DNA of 64,000 bases from assembly GCA_030390025.1 (NCBI GenBank), contig CM059432.1:87174001-87238000 (forward strand). The letters are read 5' to 3'. The notes under the pieces were generated by a model that saw only the letters and a list, made by a program, of their open reading frames with translations, was not told the DNA's origin and made no database searches. Below are positions 12,979-54,942 of this stretch, piece by piece. Both the position numbers and the translations under genes were made by a program. Numbering within the stretch: position 1 is the stretch's first letter; each line of letters starts with the position of its first letter. This DNA is from Squalus acanthias (Eukaryota).

Positions 12979-13059
12979 TCAAGTCAGGAAATGGACAAAA
13001 AGAATAGCTAAACCAATATTCAACAGCATAACCAGGATGACCAAGATTGTATTTGGACT
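12979..13059 (-). CDS. JPH1: Junctophilin last coding exon, C-terminal ER/SR transmembrane anchor (exon spans 12964-13059)
   Basis: ttacag|AGT CCA AAT... gives SPNTILVILVMLLNIGLAILFVHFLT-TGA, the typical junctophilin C-terminus. Phase 0 matches the upstream exon. Donor aag|gtaaga lies 15 nt after the stop. Too short to appear in the ORF track. Confidence 0.95.
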   Translation of the reverse strand, partial: SPNTILVILVMLLNIGLAILFVHFLT

Positions 13060-14385
13060 CTGTAATTTTTGTAAAGAAGCTTTGTTATTAATGTGACTGG
13101 TGCAAGTTATTTTAGCAGTACAATTTTAGTATATATCTTTTAAAACATTTCATCCATCCATTTTCTTTCCAAAGGGCTTCTTTTCAAACTAGCACTGTAT
13201 TACACAATAGAAATTTGTAATTTCTAAATCCTGCAGGTCAAGTTGACAACAACCCAGAAGGTGCTATAATTACATTAAATATAAACTTTACTGGACTCTT
13301 TAATAATATATTTGAATATGTAAGGACCTATTGATAAAATGGGATTCAACATCAGTCAAATGCATTCCGACTAACAGTGAAAATTAACTCCGGTTTGAAT
13401 GAATGAAACCACATTTTCAAAAACAGCCCTCAACTAACAGGAAATAATGGCATATGAGACAACCTGTAATTAAATGGGGCTTATAGCAAACCCTCCCCCC
13501 TCAAAGTAAAGGGACAAGGACCTTGCAAACAGGTTTTTATCTTTGCAGGGGGAGAGAAATAAGAGATGGAGCAAAAAGGTGTACACTATACCAATGGAAT
13601 GACTTATGCAGGCTGAACTTCATTTAAACCTAATTGACAATATATTTTTTTAAATCCCAGTAATTCACCATGCTATGTCTTGGTTTGCTTGTCACCTCCT
13701 CAATTCATGTGTAACATTTTTAACATGATTCTGAAATACAGTACTACTCAACCCGTGTGACTTCCTCCATTGTTTACAGAACAGGCACCCAGGAACTGCA
13801 GTTGAGGCTGAGTCAATTAACTCCTCCAAAAAGGAGTTGGATAAATGTCTGGTTGGGAGCACGATTGGTTGTTTGAGAGATGGGTATAGATGGAAATGAT
13901 CGAATAGTTCATGAGCCATAATGGTGGGAGAAGGGATAATGCTGCCTGGAAAGACTGCCGGGGGCTCTGAGGGTTTGGCTGATAATCTACGGAGACTGGG
14001 GAATACTCATACACAACTTTCCCTCAGGAGATTAAATAGGTGGTAGGGACTGTCACCCATAGGGTATATGGCATGGCCCTGAAATTCCATGTGGTAAGTT
14101 GCAAAACTATTCTGTTTCCCCCCCCCCCCCCGATTTCCAGCATCTGCAATAATTTGCTTTTTGTAAATACAAGAAATTCAGGGCTACGGCACCATTGGTC
14201 CTCATTTAAATATATGATAATTAGGCACATGGTGGTAGGGTCGCTGGAAGGACCAAATCATAGTTGGAAATTAGGGCCTTTCATTTTTTGGAGCAAGAAA
14301 ATGGCTTCCACCAAAATTTATTGGCCAGTTGTCCTGATTTTAGGCCCCAGAAATGCTGAAAGCAGTGAGAGCTTTCAGGGCCTAT

Positions 14386-14743
14386 GGGGGAAAAATGCAG
14401 TTGGTTGCGCCTCCCATTAGCGCCTTAAGAGGGCGCTAATGGGGCGCAAAGCAACTAGCGCCCGGGCGCGGCGATGTTTGCGGCGCTCGCGAAATTAACT
14501 AGACATTTTGCGGCAGCGCTAAACACTACCGCCACGACCTCCTGAGCCGGCAGATCGTGACGTCAGTCGAGTGCGCAACACCCCGGAGCGGATATTGAGT
14601 GGCGCCCCCTGCCTTACCGCCTGCCGCTAGCAACGACAGGTTGAGGGGAGCGTTTTGCAGTCAGGAAGGGACTGGGGGAGCGCTATTTAAAGGCGACCGC
14701 TTTCCTGCCTTTTTTTGTTGGTGACATTTTTGAACCATGCATT

Positions 14744-14778
<35 letters not shown>

Positions 14779-15280
14779 CTGGAGAGATTCAACGCTGTGT
14801 GAAGGAGTTTTGGGTACTGAGCAGCACTTTGCAGGTTCATTTTGATTTGCCCTTCCTTGTATCGATTTAGAAGAGACTGTGGGGTTGCACTCTGAGCTCT
14901 TTCCCTGGTTCTCTCCATTGTTCTTTCCAGCAGATTTGATGTGCAGGTCTCTCCAGGCCGAGATTCAAGGCTGCAATGAGCAGGATGTGGATGGAAAGCA
15001 AGATCAACCCTCCCCTTTAAAGAACTGGCCAGCGCCATTGTGTCTGTGTTCCATTGCTGACTGACATCACATGAGCTTCGCCAGCGCTCTGAGTTAGCGC
15101 CTCGCTCCTCGGCCTTTGCGCCTTAAGACAGATGTGTAGCGCCTGATTTAGCGCTCCAATCACCTCCAGGGGCGATAGAAGTCAAGTCTGCAGTCGGAGG
15201 CGATAATTAGCGCCAGCCGCTAATCTTTGCGCCCGGCCGATAATTGCACCCCAAACGGGGCGATACTGAATTTTTCCCCC
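14386..15280. mobile_element. Harbinger-type non-autonomous element, 895 bp, containing (GA)n at 14746-14775
   Basis: TIR GGGGGAAAAAT(G/T)CAGT at both ends, 3-bp TSD TAT, CpG-rich subterminal repeats (tagcgcc). Confidence 0.85.
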
Positions 15281-16470
15281 TATATCTTTGGTGGAAGCTG
15301 GAAGCTTGATGGGCTGAATGGACTTTTGCCATTTTATTATTTCTAAAGTACTTATCTTTGTGCTGCTAAAATAAAGTTAATGGTCATGACAAAGTTAAAA
15401 ATCAATAATCAGCAAAATAGCACATGTTAAACACATATCAAGTTTTTTTGTTAATAAAGTATATAAAATTGAAACTTTGCTGGACAGAATTGAAAGTTGC
15501 TGCTTCAACTTCTTTGCTGCTTATACTCCAGACTCGGTTGTAGTATCCATGTTGGGATCAGAACATCCACCAATGAGATTTGAGTAAATTAGCACATCTT
15601 AAGGGATCTCTGTGGGCAGGAATAAATGGTTATAAAGGTGGTTTCAAATTAAAATATAAAGTGGGCTTCCAGAAGGGCCTTCTTAAAAAATTCTTTTTGG
15701 AAACACGAATGCGTTAAAATCTCCCAGGCCTCCGATGAAGACTCCCGAGCCGAGAATTAAAATCGGCCCTTACATCTCTAAATTGGAGGGTTGGTGGGGG
15801 GGACGACTTCTTCGAAATGACGGAGCTACTAAATTTTCAAATTGGCTTTCTGAAATTATTTTTTATACGACAAAATCAATGTATAGGACGGGATTAAAAG
15901 GAAAAACAGCTGGAGAACTGGAAAACCAACCAATTTTTTTGTGGTAAACCAACATTATTCTGCAGATCCCAAAAATCAGCTAAAAGATTAGAATAAATAA
16001 AAAGGTCATTCACTTAATTTAGTCCAAACATCTGGCTCGATACTAAATATCCTACGGTTCCTCATTTCGAATGTAGTGAAGAAAAAAAATCCAAATTTTG
16101 TCCAAATTCTCATCAGTTTGAAAACCTTAATTATGTTCCACCTCCATCTCTTTTCCCAATGCAAATAACTTGAGCCCAACAAGTCCTGGAATCACCTTTT
16201 GCCTTTTGAATACTTCTCAAAGTACCAGTGTTCTTTTTAGGATACTAATTGATCTTCCGTGGGTTTGCTCATGGGAAGTCGAAGGATGAATTGGCTCCTT
16301 TACCCAGTACTCAATTTTTATCTCATACCTTTTTGAAGTGCAGGGTCCACAGCAGGACAGTGAGCAAGAAATACCAGGCTGGAGGTAGATACCTGGCTTT
16401 CAGTACAAGAATGGAAGGGAAGGGGTCACGGGACAGTAGTGGCAATTTTAGAATTGTGTTTCCTGTAGAT

Positions 16471-17170
16471 CAATGGTTCTCAAACCTTTTTGGTTGAAGG
16501 ACCCCTTTTCAAATGGATTAGCAATCACAGGACCCCTCATCTAAATTATTATTGCCCCCTTGTATTGATACTGTACCAGGATCTTCTGACAATGAATTGC
16601 AATATAACTATGGTGACATTTACAAAACGGGAATCCCTCAAGTATGTATGTATAAAATGATAGTGATTGTAAAGCATTGATTTTTTTAAATTACAAATGA
16701 ATTGGTTATTCAGTGTATGCAAGTGCTGCTCAGATTATTATGTCAGATTTGTTCCTTGGGCAACCCTTGCCCGTGGACAAACAGATCTAATGTCATGTTA
16801 TGTCCGACTTACGGGGCGTATTCTTTTTGGCTGTATCCCAGCGCTGCTGCAGCCAGCTGGTAGTCGGGACGGGATCTTTGCTTACAGACGTTCGGTTCCT
16901 CTCCGAACAGTAGGCCCTGTGCTTTTCCGCCTCCGACTCCTGTTACTGGCGGCGGCATTGCGCCCACTGCTGGCCCGCAGTCATTTTCCCTCCCTCCTTC
17001 TCCTCTTCATCCTGCAGCGCACTGCCGCCGCTGCCACTGCCATGGTAGCCATTCACCGCCCCGTTCAGCAGCGCCTGGCCGCTCCGCACTGGCTCGCTCT
17101 CCATCACCGACTGGGTTTTTTGTCGCAGACCCCCGGGAGTGTCTTTACAGACCCCAGTTTGAAAACCCTG
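16471..17170. mobile_element. hAT/Charlie-type non-autonomous element, 700 bp, with GC-rich exon-like cargo
   Basis: TIRs caatggttctcaaac / gtttgaaaaccctg; exact 8-bp TSD CTGTAGAT (16463-16470 / 17171-17178). Confidence 0.88.
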
Positions 17171-18015
17171 CTGTAGATCATAACAAAGAGTTCTTCTCCC
17201 GAGGGATTTTTGACGCTTTATTTTGTACACTTTCCATTGTTTTAGAGAAGACTTAAATACACAGAAATATTTGATGATGTGCACACTATATCATGAGGCA
17301 CAAAACCACTGAAAATAAGCTCCCTTGATGGCTCAGTGAGTACAACCAGCCAGGAGCTATGCAGAGCAGGAAGGCCAGCCAGCCAGCCACCAATCAACAG
17401 CAGCCTGCCACCGGTAACTACCCATCCATAACCAGCAGCAAACACCAGTTCTCAGCCAGCCACCTGTCCCAGGTCACAGGAGCCCGCTGGGTCAGAATTA
17501 GCCAAATTCAGTGCAGTCCCAAAAAGCTTTTTCTTTCTGATCAGCTGGTTTCCAAATGGCAATCGCTCGCTCTGGGATCGATTGTCATTTCAAAATGGCA
17601 TTGAGGGCCCTGTATACCAGGTATGCTTGCTTCCTGCAGGCATACATTTCATTGGCCATAGAGGTGGTGAAACTGAAAGAATTTCTAGGGGAGCACGGGA
17701 AACAAAGGAATAGGCAGGTGGAAAAAAAAATTGCCCATTGCTGGTGCATTGAGGAAGGATTTAGGGTAGAATTAATGTTCTGTTTCACCTTGCCTTGATC
17801 CTGCCCCAAATTCCTGGGACAGGGTCATTTAAGTAATAGGTTCTGTTGCCCAGGCCAGTACTGGTGCTATTGGGGCACTTTGTCTGGCAATCTGGTATTG
17901 CCAAAATGTACCAAAAATTTGATTATTTAACAGATTTTATTTAGCTCTGAAGAGTTAATCTTTGTTAGTTTTATACTTCTGGAAATATTATTTGAAACAC
18001 CTCCAAGGTCTCCTT

Positions 18016-18112
18016 TCTCAGGTGAAGCAGTTGGGTGGTCTCAGGTGAAGCAGTTGGGTGGTCTCAGGTGAAGCAGTTGGGTGGTCTCAGGTGAAGCAGT
18101 TGGGTGGTCTCA
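18016..18112. repeat. Perfect minisatellite, 23-bp unit x4.2 (TCTCAGGTGAAGCAGTTGGGTGG)
   Basis: Four identical head-to-tail units plus TCTCA. Confidence 0.97.
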
Positions 18113-18274
18113 AAGACTTGAACAAGGCTGGCTGGTGACATGTGATATGCTCTGGTTATGTCAGGTAACAGGAATTGCTGTAGGATTAGTCTGAATAACC
18201 TTTCTATTTTTCCCTCAGTGGTATTTTACAGGATACTATGGAAAACTAAGTGATATAAAATGATGGATACATAC

Positions 18275-18921
18275 CGACTCTACAATTTCTTCTGTTTCTT
18301 CCACACTAACTCCACGTGATTGAGATTTTGATAGTTTCTTTGGTTCAGGAACAACAATGGATAACTGTTTCTTCAATTTTGGCTCAGATTTAGTTTCTTT
18401 GACAGAAGACCTTGCAGGCATTGGCTTTGGCGGTGGCGGTAACCTTCCGAGTGCCATTGGTGAAGGATTAGCCTGTTCCTCCGGCTCTTCAGGTGGCAGT
18501 TTTACATCTGTGCGCACAAAGTAACTATGGTATGCGCTATGTAACTGGCCATTGCCAGCAGTCGTGGGAGTGTAAACCGCTGGCTTGGGCTGTTTCCACT
18601 CGCTCCCTTGCTTAGTACTTATCTTGGCGGCACTTTTTGATGATGGTCTATTCCCTGAAGCTCCTGATAAATCCTTGTTTACATTGCTGGCAGAGCCTTT
18701 ATTCCAGCTGGTATCTGGAGTTTTCTTGTATATTGGTGGTGAAGGAGGAGGTGTAGGGCCAGGACTATGTCCAGGAGTATGTGGTGGAGTTGTACCTTTT
18801 CTGTAGAAATGAGGACTGCTATTTGCTGAAGATGGTTTCTTTTCTTGTGGAGGTGGAGGCTCTTCTTTCTTCTCTGTATATCCCATTGCCTCCTGCATTC
18901 TCTGTTTAATGTAATCTAGAC
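18275..18921 (-). CDS. JPH1: Junctophilin (JPH1-like) internal coding exon, divergent proline-rich region
   Basis: Translates as (G)LDYIKQRMQEA...SSPHFYRKGTTPP...NGQLHSAYHSYFVRT...KSEPKLKK...EEIVES. SPHFYRKGTTPP and NG.LHS.YH.Y match vertebrate JPH1 as I recall it. Acceptor tttctctag| at 18922-18923 (phase 1); donor |gtatgt at 18273-18274 (phase 0). Confidence 0.9.
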
Positions 18922-19199
18922 CTAGAGAAAGAGGAAAATTGTGATGAAACAATAATTAGGGAAAGGCTAATAATGAGGGGAGAAAGTGACAAAGAGGGAA
19001 ATGAATGTATTTTAATATAATGATTAAACAACAATGACTAACATTTAATTGAAATGTATGCCCTTTACAGATGTGTGAAAAATGTCTGTTTAAAAAAAAA
19101 TTGTAAAATGGATAATTACTGAACATTACATTTGTGGAATTTAGAGAATTATGACACAAAAATTTAGACGATCAGGGTTGGAAGAGCTGGTAGCCTTTG

Positions 19200-38252: not shown

Positions 38253-40147
38253 CCAGATTTCTGAGGAAATTCACCCACAAATATAAGCCAAGTACATCAC
38301 AAAAATCCAATCAATTCAAATATATATTTAAAAATAGCCAACCACTGTTCAGAAATAATAATAGTAACAATCGTTCAAAGCAGTAATGCTCCAAAATATC
38401 TATCGGAAATAGTCAAAACCTGTGAAGCATGAAAACTAGGACTTGTTACAGCAAAAGCCTCGAGGCTGCAAACTGGCAGAATGAAATCCTCTACAGTGAA
38501 ATTCTGCTATACTTTGTTAAAATAAACCTCAAGTAATATGAGCTACATTGTAATACAACAGATAACAGCCCAAAACAGACTTCTGGAATTTTAACAAATT
38601 ATTAGGACAAAATACCATTGATTTTAAAGTAGTCCAATATCATTGCATTTCAAAATTTAAATACCATTACTGTAGTGAGAAAATGAAACCATGGCAACCC
38701 CTAGTAAGTCTTGGCTGTGTCGCGCACATTTTGAAAACAGGGCTGCTGTTAAAATGATAGAGCTAATTTGCGGCAGTCCTTATAGTATCCAGTATAGGCT
38801 ACAAAGAACAACACACCCTTGATAGCAGAGGTTTTAAATCGAAGGACAGAGCTTTCGCTTTTGCTTCTAATAGGATAAAAGTTGCTATCAGAAATACAGC
38901 TTGTGTATTTTTTTGAAAATTATGGTGGTACTATTAGTTTTCGTTTACAGGCATGATGCTGTCAACCAAGAGTTACCGTCACATCAAAGTACAAGGCAGA
39001 CAGAAGAAGTTCTACTGCTGTCACGTCTGAGGATTAAAAAATATAAGCAACTCATTGACTACGAAAAAAAGACATCTGGATGACTGAGCACATTGGTACA
39101 TTAGGGGTTATCTCACGATGTTGGAATGAAGTCACATTATTGTAGCAGGGTGGAGGGAAGCTTACTTTGCATATGGCCAGAGGGTTACTTGACCTGGAAA
39201 TGCTTGATGCCAACACTGGATGCCAAAGATGTCTGGACGGTGCATTTAACACACTGTCCTTTCATTCTGGATTTAAATTCAGCCCAGATTGATAGGGTGA
39301 AATTTGGCTTAGGTTTGGACAGGACTGGGAACTTAATATTCCTGGATATAACATTTTCAGGACAGATAGGGAGGGGAAATGGAGGTGTGGTGGCATTGTT
39401 AGTAGAGGATTCTGTCACAGTCCTAGAACAAAAGGATGCTCTGGGGTTGGATTAAGACAGAATCCATATAGATAGAGTTAAAGAATAAAAAGGGAAATGG
39501 TACAATTCTCGTTGTGTTTACAGACCAGACCACCAAGCAATGGAGATAGAAGTAGAAATTTGCACAGTTATAAGATAAAAGGAAAAACAACAAGGTGATT
39601 TTAATTATCCCAAGATAGAGTGGAATAAATATTGGCCCTGATTTTACTGTGAGCGGCGAAGGAACGGCTTTCGCTGTTCACCTCGTGTACAGTTGCTCAG
39701 AGACCTTTCACGGGCTTGTCAATGGAGATTTCTGGTTTTCGAGCGAATACTACAGTGCGGATCTGTGAGCAGAGCAAGCAGCAGGGAAGCTCTTCAACCA
39801 ATCAGATTGAAGAATCCTCACTGAGCCACGCAGACTGCAAAACCGGAAGTAAAAAACAGGAAATATAAATTGCATTTGAATCATTGTACAGGAAGCAAAA
39901 TAAAGATCGGGGCATACACATGGATTAAGGGAGAGACATAAAACAGAAAAATTATATAAAAAATTATTTTAATTCAAAAAAAAAATGCAGCATTAATTTT
40001 CTTCTGAGAGAATGAGACAGACTCCACACTTGTAAAATTAACTTTTCAGGGCCAGAGCGATTATTCAGCAGTAAATTATCACTTATGTCGTTAAAAACTC
40101 AGTTGCTCCTGCTTATACAAGCCTTAACGTTTTCATCTGTCTTTAGA

Positions 40148-43040
40148 GCGAGAATAGGGCAGAAATCATTGGTGGGAGTTGTTTATAGGCCCCCAAACAG
40201 TAGTTGTAATGTAGGGCAGAGTATAAATCAGGAAATTAGAGACGTATGTAACAAGGATAATACAGTAATCATGGGGGACTTTAATCTACTTATAGACTGG
40301 GCAAACCAAATTTGCAGTAATAGTGTGGAGGACGAATTTATGGAATGTATACAAGATAGTTTTCTAGATCAGTATGTTGAGGAAACAACTAGGGAACAGG
40401 CTATTTTAGATCTAGTATTATGCAATGAGAAAGGGTTAATTAATAACCTTGCAGTAAAGGGGCCTTTAGGGAAGAGTGACCATAATATGATAGAATTTTA
40501 TATTAAGTTCGAAAGTGATTTAGTTAAATCTGAAACTAGGGTCTTATCCGTAGGTATGAGGGGCAAGTTGGCTAAGGTAGATTGGGAAACTACATTAAAA
40601 GGTATGAGGACAGACAAGCAATGGCTAGCATTTAAAGAATTAATACATAATTTACAACAAATATACATTCCTTTAAGGCACAAAAACCCCACAGAAAAAG
40701 TGGTCCAACCGTGGCTAACAAGAGAAGTTAAAGATAGTATTAGATCAAAGGAAGAGGCTTATAATGTTGCCAAAAAGAGCAGTAAGCCTGAGGATTGGGA
40801 GAATTTTAGAATTCAGCAAAGGAGGACCAAGAAATTGATAAAGAAAGGGAAAATAGAATATGAGAGTGAACTAGCGAGGGACATAAAAACAGACTGTAAA
40901 AGCTTCTATAGGTATGTAAAAGGAAAAGATTAGCAAAGGTAAATGTGGGTCCCTTACAGGCTGAGACAGGAGAAATTATAATGGGGAATAAGGAAATGGC
41001 AGAGAAATTAAACAAATACTTTGGCCGCGATTTTGCCAGCGCTCAGAGGGCGGGTTCGGAGGCGGGTCAGCTGTTAAATTCGCAATGGTTGACGGCGTGT
41101 TTCCCACCTCCATGTGAGTTTCCAAAGTGTCTGGTCTGCGATCTCAGAACAGACCTGACACCAAGTCGCGGGTGAGGGATTTAAGACACTTAACTCCTTG
41201 TTAAGCGCTTGTTAATTGCGATTTTGCCAGCCTTTTCCTATTTTCCTGCATTTTAAACAGGTTTCACGATGTTCGGATATCACCTCAGGTAAGTAGCAGC
41301 GAGCTGCATAGTTCACAGCTGCAACTGCAGTATAAAAGCTGAACTCTCACATCTGTTCACTTTGAAATGTCAAAGGTTGCTGATTTCAGGATTTGGAAGA
41401 CACACTTGATTTGTCTGGAGGCTGTAAGTGTGTGGTGTTAACTCTATATGCACTGTCGCCTCCTTGGAGCAAGCGCTCTCACCATTGACAGATCGTTTCT
41501 GCCATCTTAACTTCAGCTGCCTTCTGTTCCAGCAACATCGGTGCCCCTGAAAAAATCTCACCTTGGTTCTTTGAATCCCTCCACAATCAGCCCCAACACC
41601 AACATCACCAGGCATACCAACATCACCACCAACCTTCTGCGCAATCACCTGATGCTGCACAGGGCATCAGCACCCGACTACATTGCTGCCCGGGAGGCCA
41701 GTGATGGCATCACCATGACCAGATTTACTTCACTTGACGCTGTACACCCTAGCTGCCACAAGATGCACCAGGTTAACACCACCCCACACCAGCACCATAA
41801 GACATTCCTACAATGACCAAGCCGCTCCTTTCACACTCATCACCATTGCGGGGGATATCGTTATGTCCCACCATTCACTGCAACTCACAAAGACACTTCC
41901 AAAGGTGAACACAGATCTGTACAATAAGGCAAAGTGTTGAAAATAAAGATTTCAATGTTTGACAACACATTAACAAAAAATATACATGAACATTGCATAA
42001 CACACCCAAGTGCCTACCCTTGTCTATTGTTAGTTGGTATGATTGGACTAGGATGAGGGTGAGTGTGAGGGGTGGCTAGTGAGATGGGGAAGTGATAATG
42101 TAGATAGAGAGGGATGGGTGGAGGTGCAAGGTAAGTTGTTGTGAGTAAGGATGTGCAGGAGTAGGGTAGGGAAGGCAGAGTGATGGGGATGTGATGAGAG
42201 GTACAGCTGGATGAGGTTGAGTGTGGCTTTGCAGTAACATTTCGTGATCTACTGAGATCATTGAAAGGTTTGTGCCACTGCAGCCTGGTCCTCCTGATGA
42301 CATCCCTGCTTTTGCGCTCCTGTGCAATGTGCAACCAGGCTGCGTTGATCTCCTGGGAGGTCTCTTCCACCCATGGGAAGGGAAGAGAACCTCCGTGTGT
42401 GCTATGACTTCCTCTATAAGCATATAGAGGGAGTCATGGGAGAGCCTGGGTGCAGCCGTGCACCTTTGTGCAGTGCTCATCAGTGTTTGCAGCTCAATGC
42501 TGCAGAACACTGACAGCACAACTGTCAAAATGAATGTGGCCATGGATGGTCCCTTTAAGGAAACCGGCTGATGACGCATCATCAAATGACGTCGCCAGAC
42601 CCGCTTCCTATTAATTGGCCAGGTACCCCGCAGGACGGGCTTAACAAGCCCAATCTACGGAAAATCCTTTTCACAGAGCGGCTGCAGCCGGGAATGGGAT
42701 CGGAACCCGCCAACCAGCTCTCCCGCCACCATCCCGCCTCCGCTGGGAAAATCCTGCCCTTTGTGTCTGTCTTCATGGAAGAAGACGCAAAAAACCTCTT
42801 GGAAATAGTGGAGAACCAAGGGTCTAGCGAGAATGAGGAACTGAAAGAAATTAGTATTAGTAAAAAAACAGTACTGGAGAAATTAATGGGACTGAAAGCC
42901 GATAAATCCCCTGGACATAATTGTCCATATTCTAGGGTTTTGAAAGAGGTGGCTATAGAGATAGTGGATGCATTGGTTGTCATCTTCCAAAATTCCATAG
43001 TTTTTACAACGGTTCCCGTGGATTGGAAGGTAGCAGGGTA
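40148..43040 (+). mobile_element. Younger CR1 ORF2 fragment (APE endonuclease and linker), split at 41022/42760
   Basis: VGVVYRPPNS, IMGDFN, ILDLVL, LGKSDHNMIEF; LNKYF resumes as VSVFMEED after the insert. Confidence 0.9.
41023..42759 (-). mobile_element. Non-autonomous Harbinger element, 1737 bp, with a Myb/SANT remnant
   Basis: TIR-like ends ggccgcgattttgcc / gggaaaatcctgccc and TSD TTT. Remnant APRLS.DSL..LIEEV...AWLHIAQE....RRTRLQWHKPFNDLSRS. Confidence 0.82.
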
Positions 43041-43402
43041 CCACTGACAGCAACCTCTGGATTTCCTCATTTAACTGCGCATGTGTGGACGCCAGAAATT
43101 GCTGTCAATTTTACCCTGTAATAATGGCAAGCGCTGACAGCCTTGCTGTTATTAGTGCAGCAAAATCTGGGCCATAATGTATGTGACCAAATTGGGGAAT
43201 GCTTTTTAGAATCCATCTAGGGCTGCTTCCTAGATCAATACCTTTCTAGTCCAGCAAGAAAAGAAGCACTGCTTTATTTAGTTCCGAGAAATGAAGCAGG
43301 GCAAATAACTGATGCAAGAGTAGGAGAATGATTGTGAAATAGTGACAACAACATAGTTAGGTTCAAGGTAAGAATAGAAAATGATTGTGAAAAGGCAAAG
43401 TA

Positions 43403-44302
43403 GTGTTGTCACCTGGTGTATCACAGCTCACAAGTGAGCATCAGCAGATTGTGGAGACAGGGACAGCAGTGGAGAGTGCTCGTCGGAGGGCGCAGGGCAC
43501 TCCCAGCTCTGCTCAGCTGCATGTGGACCCTGTGCCTCTGGGTCCATCCAGAAAGAGAGCGGTGCTGGAACTCCAGGGACAAGTGCAGGAGTCTCTGGCA
43601 GGTTTTGTCTCCAGGGTTACTGCGAGTGTGGAGAGGATGGAGGAGTCCAACTCTAACATGAGTGCCTTTGTGGAGGGAATGGCGCATGAACACACCACCA
43701 CAGAAAGGATGGCATCCTCCGTGGAAAGGATGGCTACCTCCACGGAAAGGATGGCTATGGCCATGGAGGAAATAAGTCACCAGCGTCTGGAAAACATGGT
43801 GAATGTTCAGAATAGACTGAAATCTCTGGAGGAGCGATGGGCAGCTATTAAGCAGAGAAACTAGAGCTTCATGGATGTCCTTTTGAGTAGGACTGCCAGT
43901 GCAGAAACGGGTCCTCATGGCCCCCCTGATGTGCAGCAAGGTGCTGTCAAGCCACTTGCTAGCACTGAAGTGGGGTTGACCCATGAGAGGGTTGTTGGTG
44001 GCAGGCAACAAGGAAGTGGGGGCTCCTCTCCAAGCGCTCACACTCCCATGCCACGGAGTAGCCCTCGGTCAGAGCCCCACCAGAGTCCTCACCCAACTGA
44101 GATGGGCGTCTCAGCCCCTGCACAGACGCAGGAGGAGCAGACTGTTGCCGAGCCCTCACAGGCTCGCAACCCCAGAGGACGCCCGCCAAAGGTGTCGAAG
44201 CAGGAGCAGCATGAAAGTGAGCAAGGTGCCTCCACATCTGCTGAAGCCACAGGGGAAGCACCACGTAGAAGCACGCGTAAGAGGAAGATAAAGCACAATT
44301 AG
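43403..44302 (+). pseudogene. C-terminal part of the Harbinger accessory (Myb/SANT-type) ORF
   Basis: Two ORFs in the same frame (43403-43864, 43871-44302) separated by one TAG. Heptad repeats, a Pro/Ser-rich tail and an NLS-like PRRSTRKRK. Identity inferred from its convergent position; no Myb domain is present here. Confidence 0.65.
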
Positions 44303-44567
44303 TCACAAGGGTAGTCACTTGGGTGTTCTGTTGTGTTGTCTTTAATTTTTGCCACTGTCATCCTTTTGTGCATTAATTAAACAGAAGTGATGGCAAACAG
44401 TTGAAGTTCTGGCCTATGTGATCTGGGAAATGGAAGTTGCACATTGAGGGCTCAGGGCGACTTGCATTTGTAATGATGGTGGTCAGAGTGATAGGAAGCC
44501 ACAGGTTCTTGTCCATTGTCTATGGTGTGATAAGAAGGTGCCAGCCACATGTTTTTGATTCGTCTAC

Positions 44568-45787
44568 CTAAGCGAATCTGGCAGAGATTAGTGCTTCCCT
44601 TGCATCCCGGGCAGCAATGTGCTCGCGTGCTGCTGCAGCTGGCTCATCCGCCTCCGTAAGCTCTTCTTCCTCCTCCTCCTCCTCTTCTGAGGAGGCTATG
44701 TGCTGAGCCACTTATTCCTCAGGCAGCTGCAAGCCACGATGCTGTGCGATGTTGTGCAGTGAACAGCAGACCACGATGATTCTGGAGACCCTGGCTGCTG
44801 AGTACTGTAGGGCTCCATCTGATCTGTCAAGGCATCTGAATCGCATCTTCAGCAAGCCGATAGTTTGCTCGATGATGGATCTGGTCGAAATGTGGCTGGC
44901 ATTGTAGCGTTCCTCAGCTTCTTTCGATGGCCTCCTCAACGGCGTCATCAGCCACGTCTTCAGGGAATAGCTCGTCTCCAAGTAGCCATCCGGAAAGTTG
45001 AGTTGGCAGATTCATGGAAGTCCTTTTGAGTAGACTGCCGCAGGATGAACGAGTCATGACAACTGCCAGGGTACTTCGCGCAAACATGCAAAATGTCCTT
45101 CCTGTGGTTACACACCAGCTACACGTTAAGGGAGTGGAAGCCCTTGCGGTTGACAAAAACAGCTGGGCTGTGATGGGGTGTCCCAAGGGCCACATGTGTG
45201 CAGTCTATGACGCCCTGCACCCTTAGCAAGCCTGCCATATTTGCAAAGCCAACTGCACGCGCGGTTACACTTGCTTGATCCGTGGAGAAGTGTATGTAAT
45301 TGTGCGCCTTTGCAAAGAGGGCATCGGTAACCTGCGTGATGCAAGTGTGTGCGGCCGACTGGGAGATGCCGCTGATGACTGCCGATGAGCCCTGGAAGGA
45401 CCCTGAAGCAAAAAAATTGAGGGCGGTGGTGACTTTGACAGCCACTAGTAAGGAGTGTCCACCCACTCCTCTGGGCTCCAGGTGTTGGTGCAGCATTGCG
45501 TAGATGTCAGCGACTACCTCTTGCGAAAGTCTCAGCCTCCTTTGGCACTACTGCTCAGTCATGTTGAGGAAGGTCATCCTCGGCCTGTAAACCCGGTGTT
45601 GCGGGTATCTCCTGCGGCGACGTGCATCCCTGCGCTGACGCCTTCTTCCCTGTGCACCATCAGGTGGCTGAGCAGGAGGTAGGCGCTCCTGTTGTTGCTG
45701 CTGCTGTTGTGCCTGGTTCTGCTGCTGCTGCGGCTGCTCTTCCTCCGAATCTGAGGACCAGGATGACAGGAAATAAATGGTTCCCAT
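44568..45787 (-). pseudogene. Harbinger (HARBI1-type DDE) transposase pseudogene
   Basis: [79 protein letters not shown]. Contains several stops and frameshifts. Confidence 0.93.
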
Positions 45788-54538: not shown

Positions 54539-54942
54539 CAGGGGTTCTCAACCGGGGGTCCACGAGAAGATTTCAAGGGGTCCGCTGCCCCGCAGCTTCT
54601 CCCAACACCATTAATCTAGCCCCAGGATTGGCTCAACTCTTACCGACTGCTGATCGGCAGCCATCACAATCAGCACCATACCAGTCATGTGTTTCGCCTG
54701 ACTTCTCACCACGCTCTCCTGAGCCAGCAATTCATTTACAAAATTCAACTTTAAAACTTAACTGCCGACAATATTTTTAATACATTTTTCACTGTTTAGA
54801 TCCAATAATAAAATGTTGTTTTATGATTGCATGATGTTTGATTTATTACCATTCTCTCCCAACGCTCCTCCACCCCACTCTGGAGGGGGGTGGGGTGGGG
54901 GGGGGTGGGTAGCTTTGGAAACAAAAAGGTTGAGAACCCCTG
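54539..54942. mobile_element. hAT/Charlie MITE, 404 bp
   Basis: Perfect 15-bp TIR CAGGGGTTCTCAACC; exact 8-bp TSD CCCTAGAG. Confidence 0.92.

Follow-up and report, generated by a model that had tools for sequence, protein, structure and literature searches.

What is an exon-like, CpG-rich block doing between the ends of a small transposon inside a junctophilin gene? Its host is junctophilin-1 (JPH1), whose last coding intron (13060-18274) contains the element, with gene and cargo on the same strand, within the stretch of 64,000 nucleotides analysed here (the window). The preliminary description proposed a Charlie-like Pack-hAT that had captured a host first exon and the start of its intron at the DNA level, from a donor gene that it could not name. 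Our analysis points to a non-autonomous, multicopy family of hAT elements, of which this is one decayed copy; the family carries the first coding exon of a pantothenate kinase (PANK) gene with its splice donor, probably captured as DNA and then probably spread in trans. We put the probability of this reading at about 0.88. Feature coordinates are collected in Table 1.

Table 1. Features of the element and of its host intron
Feature	Position	Strand	Basis
TSD CTGTAGAT (TA at positions 4-5, Buster-type)	16463..16470		Exact repeat; nnnTAnnn consensus (PMC3517528, excerpted text)
TSD CTGTAGAT	17171..17178		Exact repeat, other side
hAT 3' terminus: TIR 16471-16485 and two GGGGTC motifs; inner border approximate	16471..16545	-	Contig depth; loose ends 16527-16530
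hAT 5' terminus: TIR 17157-17170 and two GGGGTC motifs	17111..17170	-	TIR one base shorter than at the other end
AT-rich interior behind the donor; likely start of PANK2 intron 1, possibly hAT interior	16546..16806	-	Accompanies cargo in other copies
5' splice donor GTAAGT, phase 1, true exon 1/intron 1 boundary	16807..16812	-	Spliced parent contig; end of protein match
Captured PANK2-like coding exon 1; ATG 17104-17102; at least 6 nt of 5' UTR	16813..17110	-	Protein match and contig match from an RNA run (RNA by guess)
Penultimate coding exon of JPH1; precedes the host intron	18275..18922	-	tblastn, 84% to Chiloscyllium JPH1; splice sites
Last coding exon of JPH1, for the transmembrane tail; follows the host intron	12982..13059	-	tblastn, 26 of 26 identical

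The host was correctly recognised as a junctophilin intron: the JPH1 exons on its two sides are bordered by GT/AG. Across 21 matches, exon identity was 83-89% for the sharks matched, 73-79% for rays and skates and 62% for elephant shark, which marks the window as shark DNA. A perfect 23-bp tandem repeat of 4.2 copies (18016-18112) lies in the same intron.

The sequence from 16471 to 17170 is a non-autonomous hAT element. It spans 700 bp, and six-frame translation showed no transposase coding; the three element frames had no Pfam family above the cut-off. The TIRs and exact TSD reported for it are both present. The TIRs are imperfect and decayed, matching at 12 of 15 positions with one 1-nt gap, and the pair falls outside the 25 longest of the 64 repeat pairs from a repeat search of the window. 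Exact 8-mer matches 300-1500 nt apart account for 2,000 of 75,712,200 position pairs in the window (2.6e-5). GGGGTC subterminal motifs are paired at both ends, with four in 700 nt versus 0.26 expected from the window-wide count. Charlie/MER elements, we take it, belong to the Buster-family hATs. At this one site, CTGTAGAT fits the TSD consensus nnnTAnnn given for Buster-family hAT MITEs in the excerpted text of PMC3517528. Rfam gave no match over 16200-17500 at E up to 1.

Elsewhere in the window, a second hAT MITE of 404 bp (54539-54942) has perfect 15-bp TIRs and the exact TSD CCCTAGAG; its ends show the same asymmetry as those of the PANK element, and the two interiors are unrelated. ORF fragments at 1229-2156 and 42014-45547 presumably resemble the Myb/SANT and DDE proteins of Harbinger transposons.

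The CpG-rich block of about 300 bp was also borne out, with a GC content of 0.63 and a CpG o/e of 0.82; behind the donor the values are 0.35 and 0.36. The minus-strand ATG, the in-frame TAA (16943-16945) and the GTAAGT donor assigned to it are all in place. An overlapping frame beginning MPPPV, pointed out in the preliminary description, exists as well, but it differs from the parent's frame, and we set it aside as incidental; its single Pfam match (E 0.06) is below the cut-off. A plus-strand ORF of 167 aa without a Pfam match was likewise set aside as incidental.

To identify the cargo, we used as query its 97-codon frame, read through the stop as X. The only match among 81 candidates was a Pristiophorus pantothenate kinase, aligned over all 97 residues (E 6e-23, 58% identity, 100% query cover). 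A search of 1.84 billion cluster representatives likewise returned one match, a 104-aa Rhincodon gene call ending in KKNRP. The N-terminal extensions of shark PANK proteins aligned with the cargo in 10 of 10 cases at 51-67% identity. This is about equal to the identity between distant sharks (50-70%) in this fast-evolving extension, for which Pfam, as for the cargo frame, has no family above the cut-off. The protein match stops at P99, directly before the PFPWFG that begins the Fumble domain. The parent's catalytic domain scored 714.7 bits against human PANK2, 697.0 against PANK1 and 679.5 against PANK3, a small margin. The parent proteins carry mixed automatic names, both "3-like" and "2, mitochondrial-like", and we therefore call the donor PANK2-like. 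The donor gene is a shark pantothenate kinase, most likely PANK2, to judge by bit scores rather than by a tree or synteny. Searches that were partly length-limited and word-based found no chimeric protein bearing the cargo N-terminus. A single metagenome locus matching a 24-nt cargo pattern was dismissed as a chance resemblance in GC-rich DNA, the similarity covering only 25 nt.

Could the cargo instead come from the 5' part of the transposase gene of an autonomous hAT? With its ATG, it sits directly inside the 5' terminus, where a transposase first exon would be expected. However, its frame is without a Pfam family, the only proteins that match are shark pantothenate kinase N-termini, and the spliced parent runs on into the kinase core. 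The parent match refutes a transposase exon, and we give that origin next to no credence. The evidence supports the view, already taken in the preliminary description, that a first exon of a host gene was captured: the cargo is coding, stops at a true splice donor and is not a piece of transposase.

The parent transcript marks both ends of the captured exon. We compared 4 of 21 listed sequencing runs, among which no RNA source was on record; the four include X1 (DNA, organism A), X8 (organism D) and X18, the last an RNA run by guess. Contig 13 of X18 is 1,491 nt long and has a depth of 63. Over the 180 nt that it shares with the element (16821-16928 and 17039-17110), it shows 24 differences. 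At 16821 it departs from the element into letters that translate as RPPFPWFGM; the GTAAGT of the element stands where the parent mRNA has exon 2. Hence GTAAGT is the genuine donor at the end of exon 1, in phase 1, and the captured template had not been spliced. On the other side, behind 17110, the parent contig continues for 235 nt that are unlike the element, and the 30 letters of parent 5' UTR that were compared differ from the hAT terminus. Only about 6-12 nt of 5' UTR were thus taken, and no promoter; the breakpoint at the 5' terminus lies at about 17111-17116. A single-copy parent exon 1 without TIRs, or further TIR-flanked copies with the same cargo, had been named beforehand as things to look for. 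Public contigs contain a spliced parent whose 5' end is not that of the element, and many other cargo-bearing copies.

Overall, the cargo is about 87% identical to the parent mRNA (about 13% divergence), and there are many paralogous matches at 83-89%.

An RNA route would have unspliced PANK pre-mRNA reverse-transcribed into a hAT MITE that was amplified afterwards. The missing promoter and the start within the 5' UTR recall 5'-truncated retrocopies, and the window is rich in reverse-transcriptase fragments, which we take to be CR1/L2-like. The retention of the donor in place of exon 2, however, excludes a spliced retrocopy while being compatible with an unspliced template, and neither a poly(A) tail nor an internal TSD was seen around the cargo. 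We regard this route as very unlikely.

Perhaps the transfer ran in the reverse direction, so that exon 1 of the shark PANK gene arose by exonization of a transposon of this family? That the N-terminal extension evolves fast and has no Pfam family would suit such an origin. Yet the 3' end of the exon aligns with RKKRP of human PANK2 and KNRP of PANK1, and hence the exon is older than sharks. The divergence of the parent 5' UTR from the hAT terminus also argues against exonization, as does the restoration of gene-conserved residues by the majority letters of the copies (see below). We consider exonization extremely improbable and retain capture of the exon from the gene as the preferred direction.

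The breakpoints behind the donor are less sharply defined. The AT-rich interior accompanies the cargo in other copies (records 3, 27 and 28), and records 3 and 28 join the two across the donor. Its depth is similar to that of the cargo in X1 (1,369 versus 1,441) and nearly double in X8 (758 versus 407), so that an intron and a hAT origin are both possible. We somewhat favour intron 1 of PANK2 as its source. An imperfect hairpin directly behind the donor (16730-16812) has a z of -2.0 against 300 shuffles, and a window overlapping it is the best of 62 intron windows (z -2.7); both values are too weak for interpretation. At the hairpin the depth dips, and small indels cluster there when copies are compared.

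Is this a family or a single event? In X1 the summed contig depth, which is not a copy number, was about 55x the flank median over the cargo and about 52x over the interior; in X8 the corresponding values were about 31x and 57x. X1 was read to about 55% and X8 to about 72%, and for these reasons we estimate the copies only as dozens or more. The seven paralogous X1 pieces compared (records 1-7) differ from the window by 11-17%. Among them, record 6 joins the cargo to the 5' terminus, and record 1 joins the interior to the 3' terminus and then runs into 730 unrelated letters. A shallow run of organism B gave several different cargo contigs while its flanks were uncovered. X18 contains low-depth contigs of other copies (records 11, 12, 14 and 15), which we did not count as expression; use of the donor by a copy was seen in none of the 15 joints examined out of 30. 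Many copies in X1 and X8 have lost internal segments of 68-312 nt, which differ from copy to copy; in one, 70 nt of the interior are duplicated.

The 3' terminus belongs to a far larger set of elements. Over 16471-16545 the summed depth reached about 1,500x and 900x the flank in two organisms, and the bin 16484-16522 alone stood at 39,094 versus about 25 in the flanks. This larger set diverges behind the second GGACCCC motif.

The common type of animal Pack-TIR is a single copy formed by transposition-independent gap filling; here, the filled element would have been an old MITE already in place. This type accounts for most animal Pack-TIRs, with only four multicopy cases in the excerpted survey (PMC8277862); the TIRs are decayed, and the 64-kb window holds no second copy of the cargo. 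Of 1,367 pieces, 31 were examined; none of these covers an entire copy, and a further complete element between TSDs of its own was not among them. Against a single copy stand the divergent cargo contigs, tens of them in the two deeply sequenced DNA runs and several more in a third, shallow run, together with the recurrence of the cargo-interior and cargo-terminus junctions in copies that are 14-17% different. A lone gap fill is thereby hardly credible. What we see appears to be a multicopy Pack-TIR/Pack-hAT family of sharks, with dozens or more copies in several species.

The JPH1 insertion itself is shared. Over the right flank, an X1 contig and the window disagree at 4 of 320 positions. In X8, record 31 extends from the cargo across the TIR and TSD and on into the right flank; the left flank is covered by record 24, with 24 differences in 208 nt (about 11% flank divergence). 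Organism D thus carries the same insertion, which must be older than its separation from organism A. Organism D is the sole other organism in which the flanks were covered; there the site is filled, and no empty site was found. Its orthologous copy has indels at 17122, 17127 and 17167, the last an extra base. Dating by the epaulette-shark pedigree rate of 7e-10 per generation (PMC10587355, excerpted text) was rejected, as 7% divergence would give about 1e8 generations, which is implausibly old.

The differences between this copy and its relatives describe its decay. Nearly all other copies compared lack the TAA, and most read CAA (Q) in its place; contigs with G at 16945 numbered 32 in X1, 20 in X8, 2 in X6 and 3 in X18. 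Six differences in the cargo are supported by the majority of copies: the stop to Q, Q10, W84 and W89 to R, Y65 to N, and one synonymous change. The three changes to R restore residues that are conserved in the gene, and four of the six differences are CpG-type transitions. This is the pattern of a methylated, neutrally decaying copy.

Might the copy nevertheless have been exapted as a cryptic JPH1 exon? It lies in sense orientation with an intact donor, and the insertion has been kept in two organisms. On the minus strand, moreover, a weak acceptor-like site, a tandem AG/CAG made up of flank and TSD, lies at the TSD-TIR junction (17170-17190); it is in frame with the captured PANK exon, and its phase suits the JPH1 exon upstream. 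In the orthologous copy, with its three indels, this site is not conserved. A stop at codon 54 interrupts the reading frame, a 358-nt exon would shift the JPH1 frame and lose the membrane anchor, and the shark and ray JPH1 proteins searched are devoid of a PANK-like segment. We see practically no chance of such an exon; the junctophilin-intron copy is most likely without function.

How might a family of this kind have arisen? Most likely, the repair of a broken or excised Buster-type hAT element switched template onto a PANK2-like locus. The capture would have been of the gap-filling or the FoSTeST type, after the models in the excerpted text of PMC8277862; the data fit both alike. Such an event would have left hAT ends of about 55-60 bp and 60-75 bp around some 570 bp of filler. 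Buster-family transposase supplied from elsewhere would then probably have amplified the product in trans. While organisms A and D were still one lineage, one copy would have entered the JPH1 intron, and methylation-driven neutral decay would have followed.

According to the published animal survey, as excerpted, Pack-TIRs nearly always occur as single copies, and their formation does not involve transposition (PMC8277862). An old, high-copy Pack-hAT found across species would show that cut-and-paste elements can amplify coding exons in vertebrates, and surveys that require a unique parent match of at least 90% identity may be blind to such families. For shark phylogeny, the family would also supply many dated markers that can be scored as present or absent, and its copies would form a natural series in which one CpG-island exon decays neutrally. 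In shark genomes, PANK2 exon 1 may be repeat-masked or mis-mapped. A wider proposal is that sharks harbour plant-like, high-copy Pack-TIR families hidden in repeat libraries as anonymous consensus sequences. The PANK family would then be a mobile first-exon cassette, a CpG-rich ATG exon with a strong donor. Its copies would number dozens to hundreds, and some would now serve as new N-terminal host exons or in RNA feedback on PANK2 and coenzyme A synthesis. We think this unlikely.

How does the family compare with known systems? The element shows every testable defining feature of a Pack-TIR/Pack-hAT: its non-TE interior is within 100-5000 bp and includes an exon of about 298 bp with a host parent. 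The preliminary description was right about the Pack-hAT type, but such capture by hAT elements, which it called less documented in vertebrates, is already on record there. In 100 animal genomes, according to the excerpted text of Tan et al. 2021 (PMC8277862), 208 of 370 Pack-TIRs are hAT elements, and four Pack-TIRs are multicopy; elephant shark, the one cartilaginous fish there, has none. "PANK" does not occur in the 12 supplement files obtained for that paper. A description of a PANK-bearing family or of a shark Pack-hAT was not among the top literature matches listed; the family may exist in Repbase or Dfam as an unannotated consensus.

The nearest hAT relative in that excerpted survey is Pack-hAT-N8_XT of Xenopus tropicalis, which carries 291 bp of CAPSL 5' UTR (PMC8277862). 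In both cases, non-autonomous hAT ends surround a GC-rich host-gene 5' fragment of about 300 bp that was remobilised after capture. The published multicopy Pack-TIRs differ from the shark family in several respects, as far as the excerpts describe them. The examples have three and five copies, not dozens or more, and they are young, with cargo at least 90% identical to the parent, whereas the shark family is about 13% diverged. Unlike them, the shark family carries a whole coding exon with its donor and is common to species. The survey's pipeline asks for a single best parent match with an identity to the cargo of at least 90%; at about 87% and with many paralogous matches, the shark family would therefore be missed by it.

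With the Buster hAT MITEs (PMC3517528, excerpted text), the shark element shares an 8-bp TSD with a central TA, short TIRs that start with CAG and repeated subterminal motifs. The shark element differs from these in that its interior is host-gene sequence.

The closest vertebrate case in anatomy and scale, from the excerpts, is the bat Helitron HelibatN3, which carries NUBPL exon 1 and part of intron 1 in about a thousand copies (2014, PMC4224331); the same source reports that 5' gene ends are preferentially amplified. HelibatN3 and the shark family both hold a first exon and the start of intron 1, the latter only probable in the shark case, at high copy number in a vertebrate. However, HelibatN3 is a rolling-circle element with the promoter included and without TIRs or an 8-bp TSD, whereas the shark element is of the cut-and-paste kind and lacks the promoter.

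Plant Pack-MULE, Pack-CACTA and Pack-hAT elements, as excerpted from Gisby and Catoni 2022 (PMC8903248), likewise have non-autonomous TIR ends, a TSD typical of the superfamily (8 nt for hAT), gene fragments and multi-member clusters. Unlike these plant Pack-TYPE elements, the shark family resides in a vertebrate and has one identified donor gene, and no multi-gene chimerism was seen in it. In scale, its amplification would be comparable to that of the bat Helitrons and the plant Pack elements.
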